This document shows positions 51,733 through 62,480 of a stretch of DNA of 64,000 nt, in pieces. The position numbers and the translations under genes are program-made. The stretch lies in NCBI GenBank assembly GCA_965226885.1, contig CBDDEL010000017.1, forward strand, positions 480,001 to 544,000, given 5' to 3'. This DNA comes from Opitutales bacterium. Its GTDB lineage: Bacteria > Verrucomicrobiota > Verrucomicrobiia > Opitutales > UBA2987. Within the stretch, counting starts at the first letter, position 1; every line of letters begins with the position of its first letter. The notes beneath the pieces are model-generated. The model did not search any database. It saw nothing but the letters and a program-made list of their open reading frames with translations, and was not told the origin of the DNA.

Positions 51733-52548
51733 ATGGCACGAAAAATCACTTTCGTAAATTACAAAGGCGGGGTTAGCAAAACCTCGCTCATTGTCAACAC
51801 AGCAGCCTGTTTGGCCCAAAAAGGCTTTCGGGTTCTTCTCTTTGATTTTGACACCCAGTCCAATGCCAGCATTTGGCTCATGCGTTTGGACCGGTGGAAC
51901 AAGATAAACATCTCAGGAGAAGGCTCCGTCTACTCCATTTTCAATCCCGGAAAAGTCCACGTCAAGGACCTCATCATCAAGGATGTGGTAAAAAACAAAA
52001 CGGGGGAAATTCTCCTCCCCGGTCTGGATCTGGTGCCCACCACCTTCAACCTGGTCGATCTGGAAAGCGATTACGAGGGCGACCCAAAAACACCCCCCTA
52101 CCTGCTCTTTCACCAGCAAGTAGCGGAACTCGAATCCGAATACGACTACATCCTGTTCGACTGCCCGCCCAACATCCTACGGGCCTCCCAATGCGCCGTT
52201 TTCACCAGCAATGAAATCCTCGTGCCGTCCAATCCGGATGCCTTGAGCCTGATCGGCTTTACCCTCTTGGTGGAAAAACTGATGCTCTTACACCGCCGTT
52301 CGGCAAGTTTTAGGGTCAGCGGCATGAGTACGGCGGCCCAGATCAAGGGCATCATATTTAATTCAATCAAGGCCAATGTCGATATAGAGGTGCCGAAAAT
52401 GCGGATGCAACTGCGCCTGAATCAGTTTCGAAACCAAAAAAGGGTTTCCCCCAAAGCCAAAATTTACCAGACAACGATTCGAGACGCCACCGTTGTGCGA
52501 AGAGCCGTAACGCTCGGTTTGCCGGTCAACCTGGTCGTAAAAGATTGA
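51733..52548 (+). pseudogene. ParA/Soj-like ATPase, 3' truncated at the IS3 end
   Basis: NYKGGVSKT, DFDTQSNAS, YDYILFDCPP; the stop is the TGA of the IS3 terminus. Confidence 0.8.
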
Positions 52549-53873
52549 TGTGCACTGGAAAAAGTGGACACGAGATTCTCCTAAATGGAGAATCGAAGCA
52601 TGGGAAGAAGACGCTTTAGTATAGAGTTCAAAAATGAGGCAGTTCAACTGATGATACTCGATGGTCTGAGCGCCACCGAGGTATCGACCAAACTTGGGGT
52701 CAACACCAACCAATTGTATAGGTGGAAGAGGCTCTATCTGGACGATCAGCAGGGCGAAGCCACCTCAAAGCGACAGAGCAGTCCGAAGGAGATGGCGGCC
52801 GAGATAGATCGTCTTCGCAAAGAGCTGCGCCGCTCGGAGCGGATCAACCAGATACTAAAAAAAACGGTGGGCTACTTTGCCAAGGACGAACAATGAAGTA
52901 CCAGTTTGTCAAAGACAACGAGGGGCGCTTCAAGATCGAGGAAATATGCTCGGCGATGGGGATTTGTCGCAGTGGCTATTACTGCTGGAGGCCCCGAGCG
53001 CCCTCGGCCCGGCGGATCGAGGACGAGGGAATCAAGGGGGCGATCCTGAAGGTACACAAAGAGGCCAAGGGCCGCTATGGGCATCGGCCAATGCACCGCC
53101 ATCTGAAGGATGATGAGGGCATCGATTGCGGCCGTGACCGGGCTCTGCGTCTGATGCGTGAAATGGGAATCAAAAGCACCCAGAGTAAACGCTTTAAGCC
53201 ATTAAAAACCAACAGTAACCATCCCTATGGTTACAGCCCCAATGTGCTTAAAAAGCATGGCCAGCCGACCCATATCGACGAGGTCTGGGTGGCGGACACG
53301 ACCTACCTACGGACCCTGGCCGGTTGGATGTACTTGGCCACGGTGATGGACCTGTTCAGCCGACGCCTGCTGGGCTGGAGCGTTTCCAACCACAACGACG
53401 CGAAGCTGGTTGGCAAGGCCCTCAAAGCCGCGGCCATGACCCGCGGCACACTGCGCACCGGGATTATTCATCACAGCGATCGGGGCAGCCCCTACGGCAG
53501 CGACGACTATCAGAGGCTGGTCTCTGAACTAGGCATGAAGCCGAGCATGAGCGCCCAAGGCAACTGCTACGACAACGCGGCCATGGAATCGTTCTACGGC
53601 CGCTTCAAGACCAGCACGATTCGAGGCCGCCACTTTGCCGACGAGCGCGAACTGCGATCAACTGTCTTCGAATACGTGGAAATCTTCTACAACCGATATC
53701 GCAAACATTCCTCTCTGAGTTACCAAAGCCCAGTCCAATTCGAGGAAAATATTTGCCCCCCATGGGGGGCAACGAGAAAACAAAACCCTTTACCAAAACA
53801 AGCCGCCTGACACACTAATCAATAAACAATGAATATAAGAGAATCCCGTGTCCAACAAATCCAGTACACGTCA
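52546..53873 (+). mobile_element. IS3-family element copy 6 (no TSD, rearrangement junction)
   Basis: 1328 bp; flanks AGAT / TTAA differ. Confidence 0.96.
52600..53810 (+). CDS. IS3 transposase OrfA/OrfB
   Basis: orfA 52600-52896, orfB 52893-53810. Confidence 0.9.
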
Positions 53874-55217
53874 TTAACAGATCGATTGGGCAAGGCCTTG
53901 CGCAACTTGCGGGGGGTGGGCAAATTGTCCGAGGAGAATATGGCGGAGGCCCTGAAGGAGGTCCGCACGGCTTTGCTGGGGGCGGATGTGCACTTCCGGG
54001 TGGCGCGGGAATTTGTCGATCGGGTGAAAAAGGAGTGCATCGGCCAGGAGGTGACCAAGTCGGTTACGCCGGGGCAGATGGTGGTCAATATCATCAATAA
54101 GGAGCTGATCCGGCTGCTGGGCGAGGGAACCGCCGCATTGGTCGATAAAAAGCCTCTGCGGATTCTGTTGGTGGGCTTGCATGGTTCGGGAAAAACGACC
54201 ACCGCGGTAAAGCTGGCGCGGCGGCTGCGCTCCCAGGGATACCGACCGCTGGTGGCGGCTTGCGATGTTTACCGCCCGGCCGCCATCGACCAGTTGGAAA
54301 CTCTGGCCGCGCAGGAATCGATTCAATTTTACGCCAACCGGGATTCAAAGAATGTCCCGGCGATCGCCAGGGAAGCGGTCGAATACGCCAAAAAGAATGA
54401 TGCCGACGCGGTTATTTTCGACACCGCGGGCCGGTTGCAGATTGATGAGGAGTTGATCGAGGAGATCAAGAAGGTGCGCCAAAAGACGTTGCCCCATGAA
54501 GTTCTGCTGGTGGCCGACAGCGCCTTGGGGCAGGAGGCGGTCAACGTGGCAAAGTCGTTTCATGAGGCGGTCGAGCTGAGCGGGATCATTTTGACCAAAC
54601 TGGACGGGGATGCCCGGGGGGGGGCGGCCCTGTCCATGAAAACCGTCACCGGGGTGCCCATAAAATTTGCCGGTGCTGGTGAGAAAATGGACGATCTGGA
54701 GGTATTTCACCCGGACCGGATGGCTTCGCGGATTCTTGGCATGGGGGATGTTGTCTCGTTGGTGGAGAAGGTCCAGGAGACGGTGGATAAGGAAGAAGCC
54801 GAGGTGCTGGCTAAAAAGCTGCGGAGTGCGGATTTTAACCTGGAGGATTTTCTGAATCAGTTGAAACAGGTTAAAAAAATGGGTTCAATGGGCAGTTTGA
54901 TGAAGATGATCCCGGGAGCGGGCGACATCGAATTTGGCGACAAGGAAGAAAAACAAATGAAGCGGACGGAGTCCATTATTCTGTCCATGACACCCGGGGA
55001 ACGGCAAAATCCGCGTATCCTGAGCGGCAGCCGGCGCAAACGGATCGCCGACGGCTCCGGGGTGCAGGTGCGCGAAGTCAACGCCCTCCTCAAGCAGTTC
55101 ACCCAGATGCGTAAAATGATGAAAAAAATGAAAGGCACGGGTGGGAAAAAAATGATGCGAAAAATGCAGGCCATGACTGGCGGGCGCAACCGTATGCCCG
55201 GTTTGGGCGGGATGTGA
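53829..55217 (+). CDS. ffh: signal recognition particle protein with an IS-derived N-terminus
   Basis: [37 protein letters not shown], Met-rich M domain; first 15 codons lie inside IS3. Confidence 0.95.
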
Positions 55218-55252
55218 TTCGATACAGGATGCTCGATGCTGGAAAACTAGTT

Positions 55253-56005
55253 ATGAAAAATAATTTTCGAAAACGATTGCTGGATGGAGAATTGCTCATC
55301 GGCACGGTGGTATCGATAGCCAGTTCGGAGGTGGTGGAAATTTTGGTCGAGGCCGGCTTTGACTGGCTTTTTATCGATGGCGAACACTCGTCCATGGGCC
55401 CTCCCGAAATACAACGCCTTTTGCAGGCCATCGATCCCGTTTGTCCCGGAATCGTGCGAGTGCCTTCTTTCCGGGAAGCAGACATTAAAAAGGCCCTCGA
55501 TGCGGGAGCCGCAGGCATTCTCGTTCCGCAGATAAATACGGCGGAAGAGGCGGCCAGGGTGGTTCGTTATAGTAAATTCGAGCCTATGGGCAACCGGGGG
55601 GTCGGGCTGACGCGGGCGCATCGTTACGGTTTTGAGTTTCAACGCTACATGGATCATGCCAATGAGGAAACGGCCGTTATCCTGCAAGCCGAAAGCGCGG
55701 AGGCGGTTCGGAATATCGAGGCCATTACTGAGGTCGAAGGTGTCGATGCGATTTTGATAGGGCCGTTCGATCTCTCGGCCAGCCTCGGCAAAATGGGTAA
55801 GCTGGGCGATCCCGAAGTAATTGCCGCCATGGAAAAAATCGAGGAAGCTTGCCGGAAAAAGAAAATCCCGCTCGGCATCTTCGGCATGAACGCCGAGGCG
55901 GTTAAACCATTTATCGAACGCGGATTCAACCTCATCGCAGCCGGAGTGGACGCCCACTTTATTGCCATGGAAGCAAGCAAAACGCTATCCGGTCTGGGCA
56001 GGTAG
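55253..56005 (+). CDS. HpcH/HpaI aldolase family protein
   Basis: GFDWLFIDGEH, ALDAGAAGILVP, G.RG, IGPFDLSASLG. Confidence 0.93.
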   Translation: MKNNFRKRLLDGELLIGTVVSIASSEVVEILVEAGFDWLFIDGEHSSMGPPEIQRLLQAIDPVCPGIVRVPSFREADIKKALDAGAAGILVPQINTAEEAARVVRYSKFEPMGNRGVGLTRAHRYGFEFQRYMDHANEETAVILQAESAEAVRNIEAITEVEGVDAILIGPFDLSASLGKMGKLGDPEVIAAMEKIEEACRKKKIPLGIFGMNAEAVKPFIERGFNLIAAGVDAHFIAMEASKTLSGLGR

Positions 56006-56457
56006 AAATGGCAGGCTCCCGTAACATGTCACAGCCGCATGCCAATTATTGAGCATTCCAACTATTCGCCGCCCTTCGGTTTTAAAAACAAGCACCTGCA
56101 AACCATTTTACCTACCTTGACCCGAAAGGTGCGCGGGATTTGCTATGAGAGAGAGCGTATAACCACTCCGGATGAGGATTTCATCGACCTTGATTGGTCG
56201 AAAATCGGGTCGCGGAAGGTTACGATATTATGCCATGGACTGGAATCCGGCTCCGGGGAGCCCTACATGATGGGAATGGTCAAAGCCTTGAACCGGAGAG
56301 GCTGGGATGCCGCCGCCATGAATTTCCGGGGCTGCAGCGGCGAGCCCAACAAGCGAATGCGCTCCTATCACAGTGGGGCATCGGACGATCTGCAGTCCGT
56401 CCTGAAATATATCCAAAGCCGTAATCGTTATGAAAAGGTTTCTCTGATCGGATTTAG

Positions 56458-58023
56458 CCCGGATATTTCGTAAAAAAGTATCGTTGATATGCTTAACTGC
56501 TGATATACAGCAGGATAGATCAATAATTAAAGCAATATCAGCGATGACAAAAGGTAAACAATTAAAGCTACAGTTGACAAGGGTAAAAGGCCGCCGTGTG
56601 CGGGTTGATTTCAAGGGCGGAGAGGTTACTTCGGATGCCGGACTGCTTTTGATCCGGGAAGTGGATCGGCAGTTGGGCTTGACCGAACGAGCGGCCCGAC
56701 AGTTAGTGGACAAACGGCAGAAGGGCAAAGTACGCCATGAGGTATTGGGGATGCTGCGGCAGCGCGTTTACGGGCTGGTGGCGGGCTATGAGGATTTGAA
56801 CGACTTTGATACCCTGCGCCACGATCCATTGTTGCAAACGGTAACGGGGCGCATTGAAACGTTGGCCAGCGCGCCGACTTTGTGTCGTTTTGAAAACGGG
56901 CAGGATCGGCGGGCGGCCTTTGCGGTAAACGAGCTGTTGGTCGAACAGTTCATGGGCTCCTTTGCCGAGGAACCCGAAGAGATCATCCTGGACTTTGACG
57001 GCACCGACAATCCGGTGCACGGGCTCCAGGAGGGACGTTTTTTCCACGGTTATTATGATCATTACTGTTTTCTGCCGCTATATGTTTTTTGCGGTGATCA
57101 GCTGCTGGTGGCCTACCTGCGGCCGAGCAAGATCGATGCCAGCAAGCATGCCGGGGCCATCCTCAAATTGCTGGTTAGACGGATTCGCCAAAGCTGGCCC
57201 CGTACGCGGATTATTTGGCGCGCCGACAGTGGATTTTGTCGAGACCGGATACTCTCTTGGTGCGACCGCAACGAAGTTAGTTACATCGTGGGGATGGCTC
57301 GCAATGCACGCTTGCAGCAAGACGCCCAGCAGTTGCAAAAGCAGGCCAAAGAATGGTTCGAACTAAGGGGTAAAAAACAACGGTTATTCCAGGACTTCGT
57401 CTATGCTGCCGATTCGTGGCGATGGCTGCGGTTGGTCATCCATAAAGCCGAACACACCGCACAGGGGTCCAACCCGCGCTTCGTGGTGACGAACCTGCCG
57501 GGCGATCCCCAGGAGCTTTACGACAAGGTATACTGTGGCCGCGGTGAAATGGAGAACCGCATCAAGGAACAGATGCAATTGTTCAGCGAGCGCACCAGCG
57601 CCCATCAATGGTGGGCCAATCAGTGGCGATTGCTCTTGTCGGCGCTGGCCTACACCTTGATGGAAGCCATGCGCCGGTTAGCCTTAAAAGGGACGAAGTG
57701 GGCGCGGGCCCAATGCCACACCCTGCGGCTCAAATTAATCAAGATCGGAGCGGTCATCGTGCGCAACACCCGAACGATTCACTTTCACCTAAGTGAGAGT
57801 TATCCTTGGGCCAGTCTTTTCAACCATGCGGCCCGCCGATTGGTGCCAACCTAAAGGGTGCATTGGTGCTGCCCCCGGCACTACCGAACCAATGGGGGAA
57901 AGGGGGCAGTGTCTCTACACCCTGAAAAACACCTAAAAATCAAGACGATCTGCTCAAAATACAAAGAAATCCATCTCCAATAGCAATAACGAGCCAAACT
58001 TTACCCTTCATGAAATATCCGGG
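56458..58023 (+). mobile_element. IS1380-family element copy 6 (intact ORF)
   Basis: IRs, 1566 bp, TSD TTAG. Confidence 0.96.
56544..57854 (+). CDS. IS1380-family transposase
   Basis: Full-length ORF. Confidence 0.93.
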   Translation: MTKGKQLKLQLTRVKGRRVRVDFKGGEVTSDAGLLLIREVDRQLGLTERAARQLVDKRQKGKVRHEVLGMLRQRVYGLVAGYEDLNDFDTLRHDPLLQTVTGRIETLASAPTLCRFENGQDRRAAFAVNELLVEQFMGSFAEEPEEIILDFDGTDNPVHGLQEGRFFHGYYDHYCFLPLYVFCGDQLLVAYLRPSKIDASKHAGAILKLLVRRIRQSWPRTRIIWRADSGFCRDRILSWCDRNEVSYIVGMARNARLQQDAQQLQKQAKEWFELRGKKQRLFQDFVYAADSWRWLRLVIHKAEHTAQGSNPRFVVTNLPGDPQELYDKVYCGRGEMENRIKEQMQLFSERTSAHQWWANQWRLLLSALAYTLMEAMRRLALKGTKWARAQCHTLRLKLIKIGAVIVRNTRTIHFHLSESYPWASLFNHAARRLVPT

Positions 58024-58619
58024 TTAGTCTGGGAGGCAATCTGGTTCTCAAATACATTGGGGAAAGAGGAGCAGAGGGAAAGAGGAGCAGACATATCCCG
58101 ACAGATTGTTGCCGCCGCCGCCATCTCAGTTCCGTGTGATCTTGAATCCTGCTCCCGGCAAATGGCCCAAACCGGAAACAGATTCTATATGCGAAGGTTT
58201 ATCAAAAAACTGATTCGTAAAATGGAACCTAAATGCGCCATGCCGGGCGCGCCGTTCTGCCTGGAGGATTTTCTGCCCATGAAAACATTCGAGGAGTTCG
58301 ACGATCTTTATACGGGCCCCGTTCACGGATTTCGGGACGTGGTGGACTATTGGACTCAATGCAGCTCCCGCCAATTCCTGCCTAACATCCAAATACCGAC
58401 CTTGCTCATCAATGCGCGGGACGACCCATTTCTTTCCCCTAAATGCTACCCGGTTGAGGAAGCGAAAAAGAGCCGATACCTTTACCTGGAAATCCCGCAG
58501 CACGGCGGCCATGTCGGATTCATAACCTTTGGCGGCAAATGCGAATATTGGCATGAGGCCAAAGTATGCGATTTTTTAAGCAGCGGCAAAATGAGTGATT
58601 GAAAAGCTGAAAAACCATT

Positions 58620-59001: not shown

Positions 59002-59803
59002 GGTAGTGTATAAAAAAAGAATGTTATTTTGTATTTTTAGCTGTACAAATAGCGTTAGGCAGTTTATTTTTAGTGCATGGTTACTAAAATTATTAATTGT
59101 CGGCACTGTGGAAGTGAAAATATCATTAAATTTGGCAAGACGCCCAACCATAAACAGCGCTACCGCTGCCATGATTGTGGTAAACAAAGCCGCGAAAACC
59201 CCACAGTGAAATACACCGAAGAGCAAAAAGAAATGATCCTGCGAGTCTATCAGGAACGCAGCAGTCTACGCGGTTTACAGCGCGCCTTCGGGGTGAGTCC
59301 CAACACCGTTTTGAGTTGGTTAAAAAAAACGACAATCGCTGCGACCGCTCAAAAGCACGATTCTTGCGGCCCGCCGCCATGATGTCATTGAACTGGACGA
59401 ACTGTGGTCTTTTGTGGGGCGCAAGAGCGATGCCCAATGGGTTTGGATCGCTCTTTGCCGACGCACCCGTCAAATCCTCTCCTATGCCATTGGGCCTCGG
59501 GATTGGTATCGTTGCCGGGAACTTTACGAGCGTCTGCCACGGGCCTACAAAAGATGTGCCACCTACAGCGACTTTTGGAGCACTTATGATGAAGTCTTTC
59601 CTCATAACCGATCCGTGGGAAAAGAAACCGGTGAAACGGCCCATGTGGAACGATGGAACAATACCCTGCGCCAACGACTGGGTCGTTTCACACGCAAAAC
59701 CCTCTCCTTTTCCAAGCTTAAGAGTATGCATGAAACCTGTCTGAGACTTTTCATTCATCAATATAATCAAGAATTAGCCACCATTCCTACTTAATACACT
59801 ACC
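59002..59803 (+). mobile_element. IS1-family type A copy 6
   Basis: 802 bp, TSD GAATATTC; insA 59077-59382, insB to 59794. Confidence 0.96.
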
Positions 59804-62480
59804 GAATATTCAAAGGCTTTTCGACCGAAAAACTTATGTCCGCCTGGTTGTCCGTAGTTGGCATAGGTTTTTTCACCAACGCTTCCTCCACTTCAGAAAC
59901 TACGATCGTAAAATGAAAGGTGGAGCCTTTGCCCATTTGACTTTCGACCCAAATCCGGCCTCCCATTTTTTTGCATAAGCGCTTGCAAATGACCAAGCCC
60001 AATCCGGTGCCGCCATACTGCCGGGTGGTGGAGGAATCAACTTGGGAAAATGGTAAGAACAGTTGCTCTATCTTATCTTCGGGAATCCCGATTCCGGAGT
60101 CTCTGACCGCAAAATGGATATTCCATTGGGAATCCTCCAATTTGCTTGTGGCAACTTCAACCGACACATCTCCCTCTGCAGTGAACTTTACAGCATTGTT
60201 GACAAGGTTTAACAGGATCTGCCGCAAGCGATGGAAATCTCCTATGAAATAACTGCTGGAATCGTCATCCAGGTTGTATTTCAAACCAATATTCTTCTCC
60301 CGCGCTTTGATATTAACCAGTTCCAGCGCTTCCCGGACAGCGTCCTCCAGTTTAAATGGCGCCTCTTCCAGCTCAATGGCGCGGGATTCGATTTTGGAAA
60401 AATCAAGAACGTTATTAATCAACTCGAGCAGAGCCTTGCCGCTGCGGTTGATGATATTCACATATTCTTCCTGATCGGGTTTGATATCCGTTTGCGCCAG
60501 CAAGTCGGCAAACCCCAAAATGGCATTCATGGGGGTGCGGATTTCATGGCTCATCACGGCCAGAAATTCACCCTTGGCCAAACTCGCCGTATCGGCAATA
60601 TTTTTGGCTTTGACCAACTCGATTTCATTACGCTTGCTTTCAATAAATCCGCCGATGCTGGCGGCAACAGCGGTTAAAACAGCGACTTCGCTCTCCTCCC
60701 AAGTGCGTGACTGGGTATAGCCGGCAAATCCGATAATGCCCCAAAATTCCTTTTCCCGGAAAATGGGAACAAAAAGAGCCGAAACGTCTTCCGGCCACAT
60801 AAACAAACGGCGGGTGTCATCAGAAATTTCTCTTCCATGACCCTGAATGGCGCCGCCTACGGACAGCCTTTCGAACCATTCAGGCAATTGCTTGTGGTAG
60901 GAGAGATTCTGCAATTGAGAGTGATCTCGATCTTTGGTCGAAACCCCTTCCGGCCATTGGAATCTGAGACTCAGCTCCGTGATCTTGTTATCCGGGCTTT
61001 GACGATTTTCAAAAACATAAACCTTGTCAACGCCAGATGATTTTCCGAGATCGTCGATAGCATGGCCGATCGCTTGCTCAAAGTCCCGTATGGTTAAGAG
61101 ACTCGTTTTGGCTTTTGCCACTCCGCCCAACAGTTTGTCTCTTGCTTCCAGGGTACTAAGGGTTTCCTTTCTCTGCGTGATGTCATGAGCCAGTAAAATG
61201 ACGCTCAGTTGGCCGGAAATTACATCGGGATCCATGGGTGCCAGGCGTCCCTCGAACCAATAGTTTTTCCCTTCATGGGAAAGCGTGTATTCAATCACCT
61301 GGAGCTGCCCGGTCTCAATGGTTTTGGTGACCGCTTGATGGAGTTTATCGGCCATTTCAGAGGAGTAAAGTTCGAAATGGGTTTTGCCCCGGATTTCCAA
61401 CGCATGTTCGACTAGATGATCGTAATTGCTGCTCTCCGAAGCAAAGACTTCGAGATAACGCCCTTCGGCCGAAATAATAAAAGCGATATCAGGCATAGCA
61501 TTGAGAAAGGCCCTTAAACGCTGTTCGTTTTTGCTGATGGTTTCTTCCCGGATCTTATACTCGGTCAAAATGGAAGCCAGACTCAGGCCGGTCAGGCTGA
61601 GAACCCCTAAAAACACCCAGAGGTAGGCTGGAGGCTGGGAGTGTATCTTGGTAGCTTCAGGTCCTATGACTTCCTTTAATTCCCAGACGGCCATGATAGC
61701 TAAAATTAATATGCCGAGAGTGGCGCCGCGCTGGCCGTAGCGAATGCCCGCCCAGGCTAACAAGGGAAATATGGTCAACTCCAAAGGATAGCGAAGCGTA
61801 TCAGAGGGTGCCCAATTGCTGAATGCCATCCAACCGAAAAAAATGAGTGTGCACAACCAGAGGAATACCTCAATCAGTTGCCGGTTGGTGAAATTTATGC
61901 GGGTTTGGGAATACCAAACCAAAATAAACGGGCCCAGAACGACCATGCCCAAAAACTGCCCCAGCCAGCGAATCGACCAAATGTTATTGAAATCAGGTTT
62001 GAATTCAGGATGCTGCCAGACAAATGCTACGGTCGTGATGGAGGCATGGATCAGTGTGCTGAGCAGCGCGGCAATGAATATGAACCCCAGCACATCCTTC
62101 AACCGCTCAAGCGCGTTGTTGAAATTTACCAGCTTGCGAAGAGCGAATACCGCTCCGGCCATGGTTAATGAAAAAGAGGCCGCCGAAATTAGAGAGTAGG
62201 TCAAACCGCTTCCCTGCCAATAATCGGTAATCGCCGTGCCTAGGGCAAAGGCGCCCAGATACCGATAACCGAACAATAGTAAAACGGCTATGGCAAACCC
62301 GGATGGGGGCCACATAAGCGGGGCCGTTTTCTCCAATAGAGCCATTTCCAGGCCCAGGCCACCCGCAGACCCACAGTATATCAGGACCACCCCAAGATGT
62401 TTTGTAATACTCAGAGCCCATCCTCGGGCATCTCCGGGCAAATACTTGAAAAGGTCTGCTTTTCGGATCATAATAACCAC
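59799..62480 (-). CDS. MASE1-PAS-GAF histidine kinase, truncated before REC by IS1A
   Basis: WPPSG MASE1-like TM region, PAS, GAF, MSHEIRTPMN, NAVKFT, GGTGLGL; stop TAG supplied by the IS end. Confidence 0.9.
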   Translation of the reverse strand: MVIMIRKADLFKYLPGDARGWALSITKHLGVVLIYCGSAGGLGLEMALLEKTAPLMWPPSGFAIAVLLLFGYRYLGAFALGTAITDYWQGSGLTYSLISAASFSLTMAGAVFALRKLVNFNNALERLKDVLGFIFIAALLSTLIHASITTVAFVWQHPEFKPDFNNIWSIRWLGQFLGMVVLGPFILVWYSQTRINFTNRQLIEVFLWLCTLIFFGWMAFSNWAPSDTLRYPLELTIFPLLAWAGIRYGQRGATLGILILAIMAVWELKEVIGPEATKIHSQPPAYLWVFLGVLSLTGLSLASILTEYKIREETISKNEQRLRAFLNAMPDIAFIISAEGRYLEVFASESSNYDHLVEHALEIRGKTHFELYSSEMADKLHQAVTKTIETGQLQVIEYTLSHEGKNYWFEGRLAPMDPDVISGQLSVILLAHDITQRKETLSTLEARDKLLGGVAKAKTSLLTIRDFEQAIGHAIDDLGKSSGVDKVYVFENRQSPDNKITELSLRFQWPEGVSTKDRDHSQLQNLSYHKQLPEWFERLSVGGAIQGHGREISDDTRRLFMWPEDVSALFVPIFREKEFWGIIGFAGYTQSRTWEESEVAVLTAVAASIGGFIESKRNEIELVKAKNIADTASLAKGEFLAVMSHEIRTPMNAILGFADLLAQTDIKPDQEEYVNIINRSGKALLELINNVLDFSKIESRAIELEEAPFKLEDAVREALELVNIKAREKNIGLKYNLDDDSSSYFIGDFHRLRQILLNLVNNAVKFTAEGDVSVEVATSKLEDSQWNIHFAVRDSGIGIPEDKIEQLFLPFSQVDSSTTRQYGGTGLGLVICKRLCKKMGGRIWVESQMGKGSTFHFTIVVSEVEEALVKKPMPTTDNQADISFSVEKPLNIR

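Follow-up and report, generated by a model that had tools for sequence, protein, structure and literature searches.

Mobile elements that give neighbouring genes promoters and first codons are a known kind of event; here a putative event of this kind concerns a core, normally indispensable housekeeping gene. The locus lies in a 64,000-nucleotide stretch of DNA (hereafter the window) from an Opitutales bacterium (GTDB lineage Bacteria; Verrucomicrobiota; Verrucomicrobiia; Opitutales; UBA2987; NCBI GenBank assembly GCA_965226885.1, here G000; contig CBDDEL010000017.1, positions 480,001 to 544,000, forward strand), in which the right end of an IS3-family insertion sequence (IS) is joined in frame to ffh, the gene for the SRP54 protein (Ffh) of the signal recognition particle (SRP). 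We give about an even chance to the reading that Ffh is made here by read-through transcription and from an ATG carried by the IS, with a 14-residue IS-encoded tail, after an IS-mediated deletion or recombination.

In the passages of PMC8860574 that deal with Escherichia coli IS3, the element possesses an outward promoter, P3R, and acts in an engineered plasmid system according to an insertion-deletion-excision model, with IS3 rapidly making adjacent deletions that are able to reach up to a needed gene. The ffh locus resembles this mobile promoter in that the element belongs to the IS3 family, adjoining sequence appears deleted up to a gene needing expression, and the downstream gene would depend on transcription out of or through the IS. 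In contrast to the P3R system, no consensus-grade outward promoter was found in the element adjoining ffh, and the breakpoint lies inside coding sequence, so that the IS must supply the start codon too. Furthermore, whereas that system is an engineered plasmid, the ffh case is a natural one in an uncultured bacterium, known from its sequence.

A second relative is MITEAba12 of Acinetobacter, a miniature inverted-repeat transposable element (MITE) whose outward-reading terminal repeat, according to the relevant parts of PMC6382973, supplies the first codons (MQQS) of a neighbouring gene, with an outward promoter being proposed. Common to both is an element end, the terminal inverted repeat, that encodes the first codons of the adjoining gene. 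However, MITEAba12 is a 113-bp MITE contributing four residues to accessory genes, while at ffh a full 1.3-kb IS contributes 15 codons and three native residues are lost; and transcripts from the outward promoter were seen there, whereas the ffh fusion is a prediction from DNA. Finally, the passages of PMC11708052 on IS copies without target-site duplications (TSDs) trace such copies to inter-copy recombination or adjacent deletion. Unrelated flanks, the lack of a target duplication and missing intervening DNA are common to those copies and ours, but those passages concern laboratory E. coli and Pseudomonas fluorescens lines, without rescue of a truncated essential gene. Our literature search for IS-supplied start codons found no direct precedent, and the one for N-terminally tagged Ffh nothing usable: the words "N-terminally His-tagged" in the pertinent part of PMC4602035 refer to nascent chains.

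An open reading frame from the IS into ffh

The ATG at 53829-53831, located 18 nt past the stop codon of the transposase gene orfB, opens an open reading frame (ORF) of 462 amino acids (aa; 53829..55217, stop codon at 55215-55217) that runs through the right inverted repeat into ffh (Table 1). Sequence and ORF list thereby confirm the original prediction, made from the sequence by a model, that an ATG within the IS end reads in frame through the repeat into the gene. Upstream, the ffh frame is closed by a TAA at 53823-53825, with a single codon between it and the ATG; no other ATG lies in frame ahead of the junction. Pfam matches on the 462-aa ORF comprise SRP54_N (1-75 of 75, from residue 16), the SRP54 GTPase (3-196 of 196) and SRP_SPB (2-91 of 91); the N, G and M domains are thus in order and complete, with 94 % identity to Ffh of the closest relative, a sister genome of the same genus (G004). 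An AlphaFold2 model (12-sequence alignment, mean predicted local distance difference test score (pLDDT) of 75) gives residues 1-14 a pLDDT below 50, that is, predicts them to be disordered, and lets helix N1 (residues 16-23) begin at the first native residue, L16, with a short further helix at residues 25-27.

Outward in-frame ORFs of at least 100 aa occur at 14 of 151 IS right ends genome-wide, a number close to that expected if insertion into genes were random. Among these 14, only ffh kept a full set of Pfam domains. The other 13 are host-gene fragments, pieces of other transposases, a repeat array, or ORFs with no Pfam family; the host-gene fragments, which begin far into their Pfam profiles or are short of N-terminal parts, include a TonB-receptor barrel without its plug, a YdbH-like fragment (680-790 of 893), a HAD domain from position 23, a GT2 domain from 22, a metallo-beta-lactamase (103-196 of 196) and a receiver domain from 9. 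The repeat array (L053, G000:C16:57898-58662) is entered by its outward ORF as a perfect tandem array of at least 7 repeats of a unit of ~24 aa (SSMEQKLVSLRWNKNWCLFDGTKTGV), with marginal Pfam matches.

Loss of the native 5' end from a single-copy gene

The loci of 11 out of 11 relatives encode an Ffh N-terminus of the form M-[F/L]-E-x-L-[T/S/K]-[D/E]-[R/K]; the original prediction had taken M-F/L-x-x-L-T/S-x-R/K-L as the typical start. In G004, the 5' end of ffh reads ...AGAAGT ATG TTT GAG TCA TTG ACA GAT, and DNA homology to G004 begins at window position 53870. Since the last four IS bases, GTCA, are identical to the native GA-GTCA, the breakpoint can be placed no more exactly than within 4 nt, and the loss is confined to the M-F-E codons; Ser4 is restored by the TCA of the IS. 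Thus, compared with the relatives, promoter, leader and three codons have been replaced. The 300 bp upstream of G004 ffh have no counterpart in the whole 5.48-Mb assembly, and a genome-wide search for an orphan ffh 5' end (15-nt motif, up to 2 mismatches) gave three hits, none of them beside an IS or ffh. The absence of the native start, leader and promoter at 53874, previously claimed, is therefore borne out, while the orphan 5' end followed by IS3, for which a search had been proposed, did not turn up beside any IS in this motif search. A 28-nt pattern that the native form shares with the IS form matched only the sister genome G004 among public genome contigs, and no locus in public metagenome contigs.

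The ffh gene is single in the assembly (5.48 Mb, 17 contigs, 96 % complete), in which FtsY, a paralogue with 36 % identity, gives the sole further match; the proposed check for a second ffh thus found none there apart from this paralogue. Its partners are present, with an intact FtsY ORF (324 aa, no internal stop) and the small SRP RNA (4.5S RNA; RF00169, 72 bits at a cut-off of 40). Furthermore, 29 of 30 relatives of the order have a match of Ffh grade, among them genomes of 0.8-0.9 Mb; the remaining one is an assembly that is 81 % complete. Since the order as a whole retains Ffh and both partners are undamaged in this genome, continued expression of ffh is the most likely reason for the survival of the lineage. 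Polarised with two outgroups, the ffh branch to G000 carries 25 synonymous and 9 conservative nonsynonymous changes and that to G004 22 and 13, respectively, 34 sites being unpolarised; as substitution counts, these show long-term constraint without dating the IS event.

The same findings bear on a different explanation, namely that the ffh allele of the window does not sustain cells: it might be a recent dead allele of a subpopulation, an intact ffh might have been left unassembled or unchosen, or the loss of SRP might be tolerated. The last variant has a parallel in E. coli, where the relevant part of PMC7844537 describes a bypass of SRP loss by suppressors that slow translation, and the heavy erosion of this genome by IS, with 43 of 115 copies of the element devoid of a TSD, speaks for the explanation as well. 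Against it stand the lack of a second ffh or an orphan 5' end in 5.48 Mb, the intact FtsY and 4.5S RNA, and the retention of Ffh in all but one of the 30 relatives, even in genomes of 0.8 Mb. We hold this explanation to be rather unlikely; the read contigs and the age of the IS copies, considered below, concern it as well.

Two further observations were made on the region upstream of ffh in the genus. A second repeat of ~815 bp has hundreds of near-identical copies in G000 (e.g. 59002-59806, C17:539002-539806), which are about 97-98 % identical to a sister-genome copy, and G004 has one such copy ~300 bp upstream of ffh. In addition, the ffh contigs of G001 and G002 begin 563 and 309 bp, respectively, before the conserved part of ffh. 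The region upstream of ffh may be one where, within the genus, elements land or breaks occur repeatedly.

Translation start and transcription

The 3' end of the 16S rRNA carries the canonical CCUCC anti-Shine-Dalgarno (anti-SD) sequence. However, SD-like tetramers are not enriched: they precede 15.4 % of gene starts versus 15.5 % of internal controls. Gene starts were approximated by the first ATG in each of 1453 long ORFs, which were left from 2202 after removal of repeated ORFs. An SD is also absent from the native ffh leaders of three same-genus relatives. RNA folding of the window from -30 to +30 around the start gave a mean of -7.8 kcal/mol for gene starts versus -14.1 kcal/mol for internal sites. 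At -3.4 kcal/mol, the ATG at 53829 has a weaker fold than 85 % of the gene starts and than 99.4 % of the internal sites. Because SD sequences are not enriched in this genome, gene starts are unstructured and the fold at 53829 is so weak, this ATG looks like a start in the context of this genome.

Other candidate starts in frame are TTG or GTG codons at 53886, 53898, 53907, 53916 and 53925 and the ATG at 53940. Expression from one of these would yield an Ffh without helix N1 and would make the IS-encoded ORF an untranslated by-product. The original prediction had named the ATG at 53940 as its alternative, and the GAGGAG that it saw 3 nt upstream does exist, as does the canonical anti-SD. Moreover, the weak promoter candidate in the IS end (see below) would start the mRNA past the ATG at 53829, and a truncated Ffh need not be dead, since in the pertinent part of PMC2572998 E. 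coli Ffh and FtsY lacking αN1 still form a complex, and do so faster. Nevertheless, a spacing of 3 nt is short for an SD, gene starts of this genome show no SD enrichment, and local RNA structure disfavours all three internal sites that were folded: the ATG at 53940 (-17.4 kcal/mol) is more structured than 96.5 % of gene starts, the GTG at 53916 (-18.4 kcal/mol) than ~97 % and the TTG at 53886 (-12.5 kcal/mol) than ~84 %. The methionine in question, M38 of the fusion and Met27 of native Ffh, is invariant in 12 of 12 aligned sequences, so that this alignment marks it as a conserved residue rather than a dedicated start; the two glutamate codons that spell GAGGAG are likewise conserved in relatives, hence neither is evidence of a start. 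Helix N1 itself is conserved in all 11 relatives. An internal start is, in our estimation, distinctly improbable.

In the reading that we prefer, transcripts would pass through the IS into ffh. No RNA run containing the locus is among 22 runs listed. The peptidase-like ORF further upstream, the parA-like gene and the IS genes have the same orientation as ffh, and no plus-strand terminator was found in 52400-54100, where all four terminator-like sites are on the minus strand. A promoter-like sequence at the left end of the IS faces the transposase genes and then ffh (Table 1). No consensus-grade outward promoter was found in the IS, and its right end contains only sub-threshold candidates (8 of 12 consensus positions or fewer), the best being CTGACA-18-GAATAT at 53807-53836 (8/12, below threshold). 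A GC-rich palindrome, TTGCCCCCCATGGGGGGCAA, is located at 53753-53772 in the 3' end of orfB and is followed on the minus strand by a T-rich run; this terminator-like structure could stop transcripts that arrive in the IS from its right side.

The IS burst and the origin of the junction

The element adjoining ffh has the hallmarks of the IS3 family: an orfA with a helix-turn-helix (HTH) domain (HTH_Tnp_1, E-value 1.1e-17) and an orfB with an integrase core (rve, 1.9e-24, plus HTH_21, rve_2 and rve_3), imperfect terminal repeats of the TG...CA type, and, at 72 of 115 copies, TSDs of 3-4 bp. The open frame of orfB begins at 52722, in -1 relative to orfA, and ends with TGA at 53808-53810. In the overlap of both genes, the sequence contains a slippery run, A_AAA_AAA (52857-52863), which is likely the site of the predicted -1 frameshift from orfA to orfB.

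Genome-wide, there are 118 full-length copies of this IS, in addition to 75 partial matches. The full-length copies are 97.8-100 % identical to the one at ffh, 107 of them at 99.4 % or more, and 115 start with TGATGTG and end with AC[G/A]TCA. Four sister genomes contain only fragments of 77-91 % identity, besides exact matches of 24-34 nt to the left end; judged by these identities, the burst is recent and lineage-specific. With nearly identical copies and a burst confined to this lineage, too little time would have passed for a dead ffh to show damage. The original prediction had argued from an ffh undamaged while its neighbours decay: its ORF is indeed intact, but as an argument for function this is weak, the burst being too recent.

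TSDs of 4 bp flank 37 of the 115 copies with canonical ends and TSDs of 3 bp flank 35, while 43, including the copy at ffh, are without any target duplication of 3-5 bp. These 43 copies point to many IS-IS recombinations and to a gene order scrambled with respect to the sister genome. Several of them can be paired by their flanks, e.g. C16:822667 with C16:83061. At another site (G000:C16:109154-110512), an IS right end is followed by 8 nt (GTTTTATA) and then by a left-end fragment of the same IS; this joint, which contigs of two sequencing runs (X1, X2) contain as well, places the two ends head to tail, unlike a circle junction of 3-4 bp.

At the ffh copy, the left flank ends in ...AAAGAT and the right flank begins with TTAACAG... 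To the left, the parA-like gene stops 26 codons short of its counterparts in three same-genus relatives and ends in a TGA (52546-52548) formed by the first three IS bases; neither the missing codons nor the DNA that follows them exists anywhere in the genome. Among the IS copies lacking their own TSD, none has a left flank ending in TTA/TTAA or a right flank starting with GAT/AGAT, as expected for reciprocal products, and the ffh copy pairs with no other TSD-less copy in the genome. Because there is no TSD, the parA-like gene on the left is truncated and reciprocal products are missing, the junction, judged by its flanks, is the scar of recombination between IS copies and/or of an IS-adjacent deletion, with the reciprocal products lost. 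These same three findings speak against the simple insertion implied by the original prediction.

In G004, the parA-like gene and ffh do not share a contig, and the contig of ffh extends for at least 282 kb upstream of that gene. The region 12-50 kb upstream of G004 ffh maps to contigs C16 and C11 in G000, with the ancestral upstream neighbourhood of ffh now being on C16; downstream of ffh, both genomes are collinear except for extra IS insertions in G000. Given the separate contigs and this upstream length, a single short adjacent deletion from parA to ffh is unlikely; a better fit would be IS copies that recombined with one another, with subsequent loss.

Read contigs and the weighing of the fusion

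The read evidence consists of k-mer contigs from four runs (X1-X4) of two samples, and these contigs break at IS copies and at strain bubbles. The parA-IS junction is contained in a 2658-nt contig of X1, which reaches 25 nt into the IS. This independent contig bears on the suspicion that the junction is an assembly artefact, either a misjoin across more than 100 near-identical IS copies or a chimera of two co-occurring strains. Conditions for such an error do exist, as a 1.3-kb repeat is present in 118 copies, two closely related strains share the same samples, and the ffh copy, besides lacking a TSD, has flanks that belong to unrelated loci in the sister genome. However, a misjoin inside the IS could mis-pair flanks, but it could neither create a junction between the very IS end and codon 5 of ffh nor leave the entire assembly without the native 5' end. 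Junctions of this type are, furthermore, general in this genome, as the 43 TSD-less copies attest, so that we regard an artefact as highly improbable.

Several points weigh against an expressed fusion that serves this organism. Both samples contain a second ffh allele, G004-like at 24 of 25 listed variant sites, and two X3 contigs join a native 5' end (...ATGTTTGA; AGAAAC ATG TTT GA) to the gene at 53870, therefore an uninterrupted ffh exists in that community. The IS-ffh junction (across 53873) is bridged by no contig among the pieces listed. The single-copy status of ffh applies to an assembly that is 96 % complete. The recent burst means that an intact ORF and a low ratio of nonsynonymous to synonymous change (dN/dS) are no proof of function after the event. 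Promoters of IS3-family transposases are usually weak, and the right-end candidate CTGACA-18-GAATAT would start the mRNA downstream of the ATG at 53829, favouring an internal start. Finally, a match of frame by itself is expected once in three for a given orientation, and outward in-frame ORFs are common in this genome.

Some of these points would suit an allele that does not sustain cells, namely the recent burst, the incompleteness of an assembly in 17 contigs, and the native 5' ends in X3, for which no A>G is listed at 53876, where G004 differs. In X1, moreover, window-type ffh contigs have a depth of ~6 versus 3.4 for the contig on the parA side. In X2, by contrast, flank (5) and ffh (5-6) are equal in depth, although such low values are noisy. 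The simplest source of the native 5' ends in X3 is the co-occurring sister (G004-like) organism, but k-mer contigs broken at strain bubbles cannot assign them to a strain; in X3 and X4, the parA-like gene of this second organism is uninterrupted and has exactly the G004 sequence. As a side observation, the second ffh allele in X1 and X2 (window 53913-54400) matches the window over 54021-54175 and G004 on either side, and would represent either a mosaic or a third strain.

According to the reading that we prefer, in which the fusion is expressed, an IS-mediated deletion or inter-copy recombination would have left the IS joined to codon 5 of the single ffh. The same event would have removed the ffh promoter, the leader and codons 1-3, together with the 3' end of an unrelated parA-like gene, and the cut into ffh would have run as far as selection allowed. 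Transcription would then proceed co-directionally through the IS, from the promoter at its left end and/or from upstream host genes, and translation would begin at the IS-borne ATG in an A/T-rich, unstructured stretch past the transposase stop. The predicted product is an Ffh with a floppy tail of 14 residues instead of M-F-E, placed ahead of an intact helix N1.

A stronger version, which we put forward tentatively and rate somewhat short of even, is that the only SRP54 of this organism is a chimera whose promoter, translation start and first 14 residues derive from an IS3-family element; this IS copy would be indispensable, and the supply of SRP would be tied to transposase transcription. Possibly, it would also be tied to transposase translation, by termination-reinitiation across the 18 nt that follow the orfB stop.

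Features of the region

The ORF downstream of ffh, collinear with G004, overlaps the ffh stop codon by 4 nt and is for this reason probably co-transcribed with ffh. Further downstream, an alpha/beta-hydrolase-like ORF (56039-56473) is split by an insertion of ~1.57 kb that is missing from G004 (within window 56039-58024) and that encodes a transposase-like ORF of 456 aa (56484-57854).

Table 1. Features from the parA-like gene to the ORF downstream of ffh, in window coordinates
Feature	Position	Strand	Basis
parA-like P-loop ATPase gene, 3'-truncated	51733..52545	+	Pfam AAA_31/CbiA; ORF
IS3-family insertion sequence, 1328 bp	52546..53873	+	profile matches, terminal repeats, genome-wide copies
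left inverted repeat (IRL), 41 nt, begins with TG	52546..52586	+	76 % complementary to 53833-53873
promoter-like TGGACA-17-GAGAAT, in or just past IRL, facing transposase genes, then ffh	52565..52593	+	9/12 consensus matches only
IS orfA, HTH_Tnp_1	52585..52896	+	ORF list and Pfam
IS orfB, HTH_21 and rve integrase core, -1 frame versus orfA	52896..53810	+	ORF list and Pfam
A/T-rich spacer, 18 nt, from orfB stop to ATG 53829	53811..53828	+	sequence
IS-encoded 15 codons, almost all within the right inverted repeat	53829..53873	+	last codon TCA recreates native Ser4
right inverted repeat, 41 nt, ends with CA	53833..53873	+	76 % complementary to 52546-52586
native ffh, codon 5 (LTDRLGK...) to stop	53874..55217	+	ORF, Pfam, alignment to relatives
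candidate internal start: GAGGAG, 3 nt, ATG (native Met27, M38 of the fusion)	53931..53942	+	sequence
downstream ORF, GTG start, 4-nt overlap with ffh stop	55214..56005	+	collinear with G004

Significance

Should the fusion not be expressed, the locus would serve as a warning that a seemingly intact essential gene in an IS-rich, multi-strain metagenome assembly may be a very young pseudogene. If it is expressed, the locus would show to what extent IS-driven erosion into an essential gene can be survived, and one IS copy would be fixed through selection on a neighbouring gene. It would further give a natural instance of the proposed IS-catalysed formation of operons, with deletions reaching an essential gene, and would put the Ffh N-terminus to a natural test of tolerance, be it to a 14-residue tail or to the loss of helix N1. 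The stronger version, if true, would represent the natural beginning of the domestication of an IS, at a housekeeping gene that is essential.

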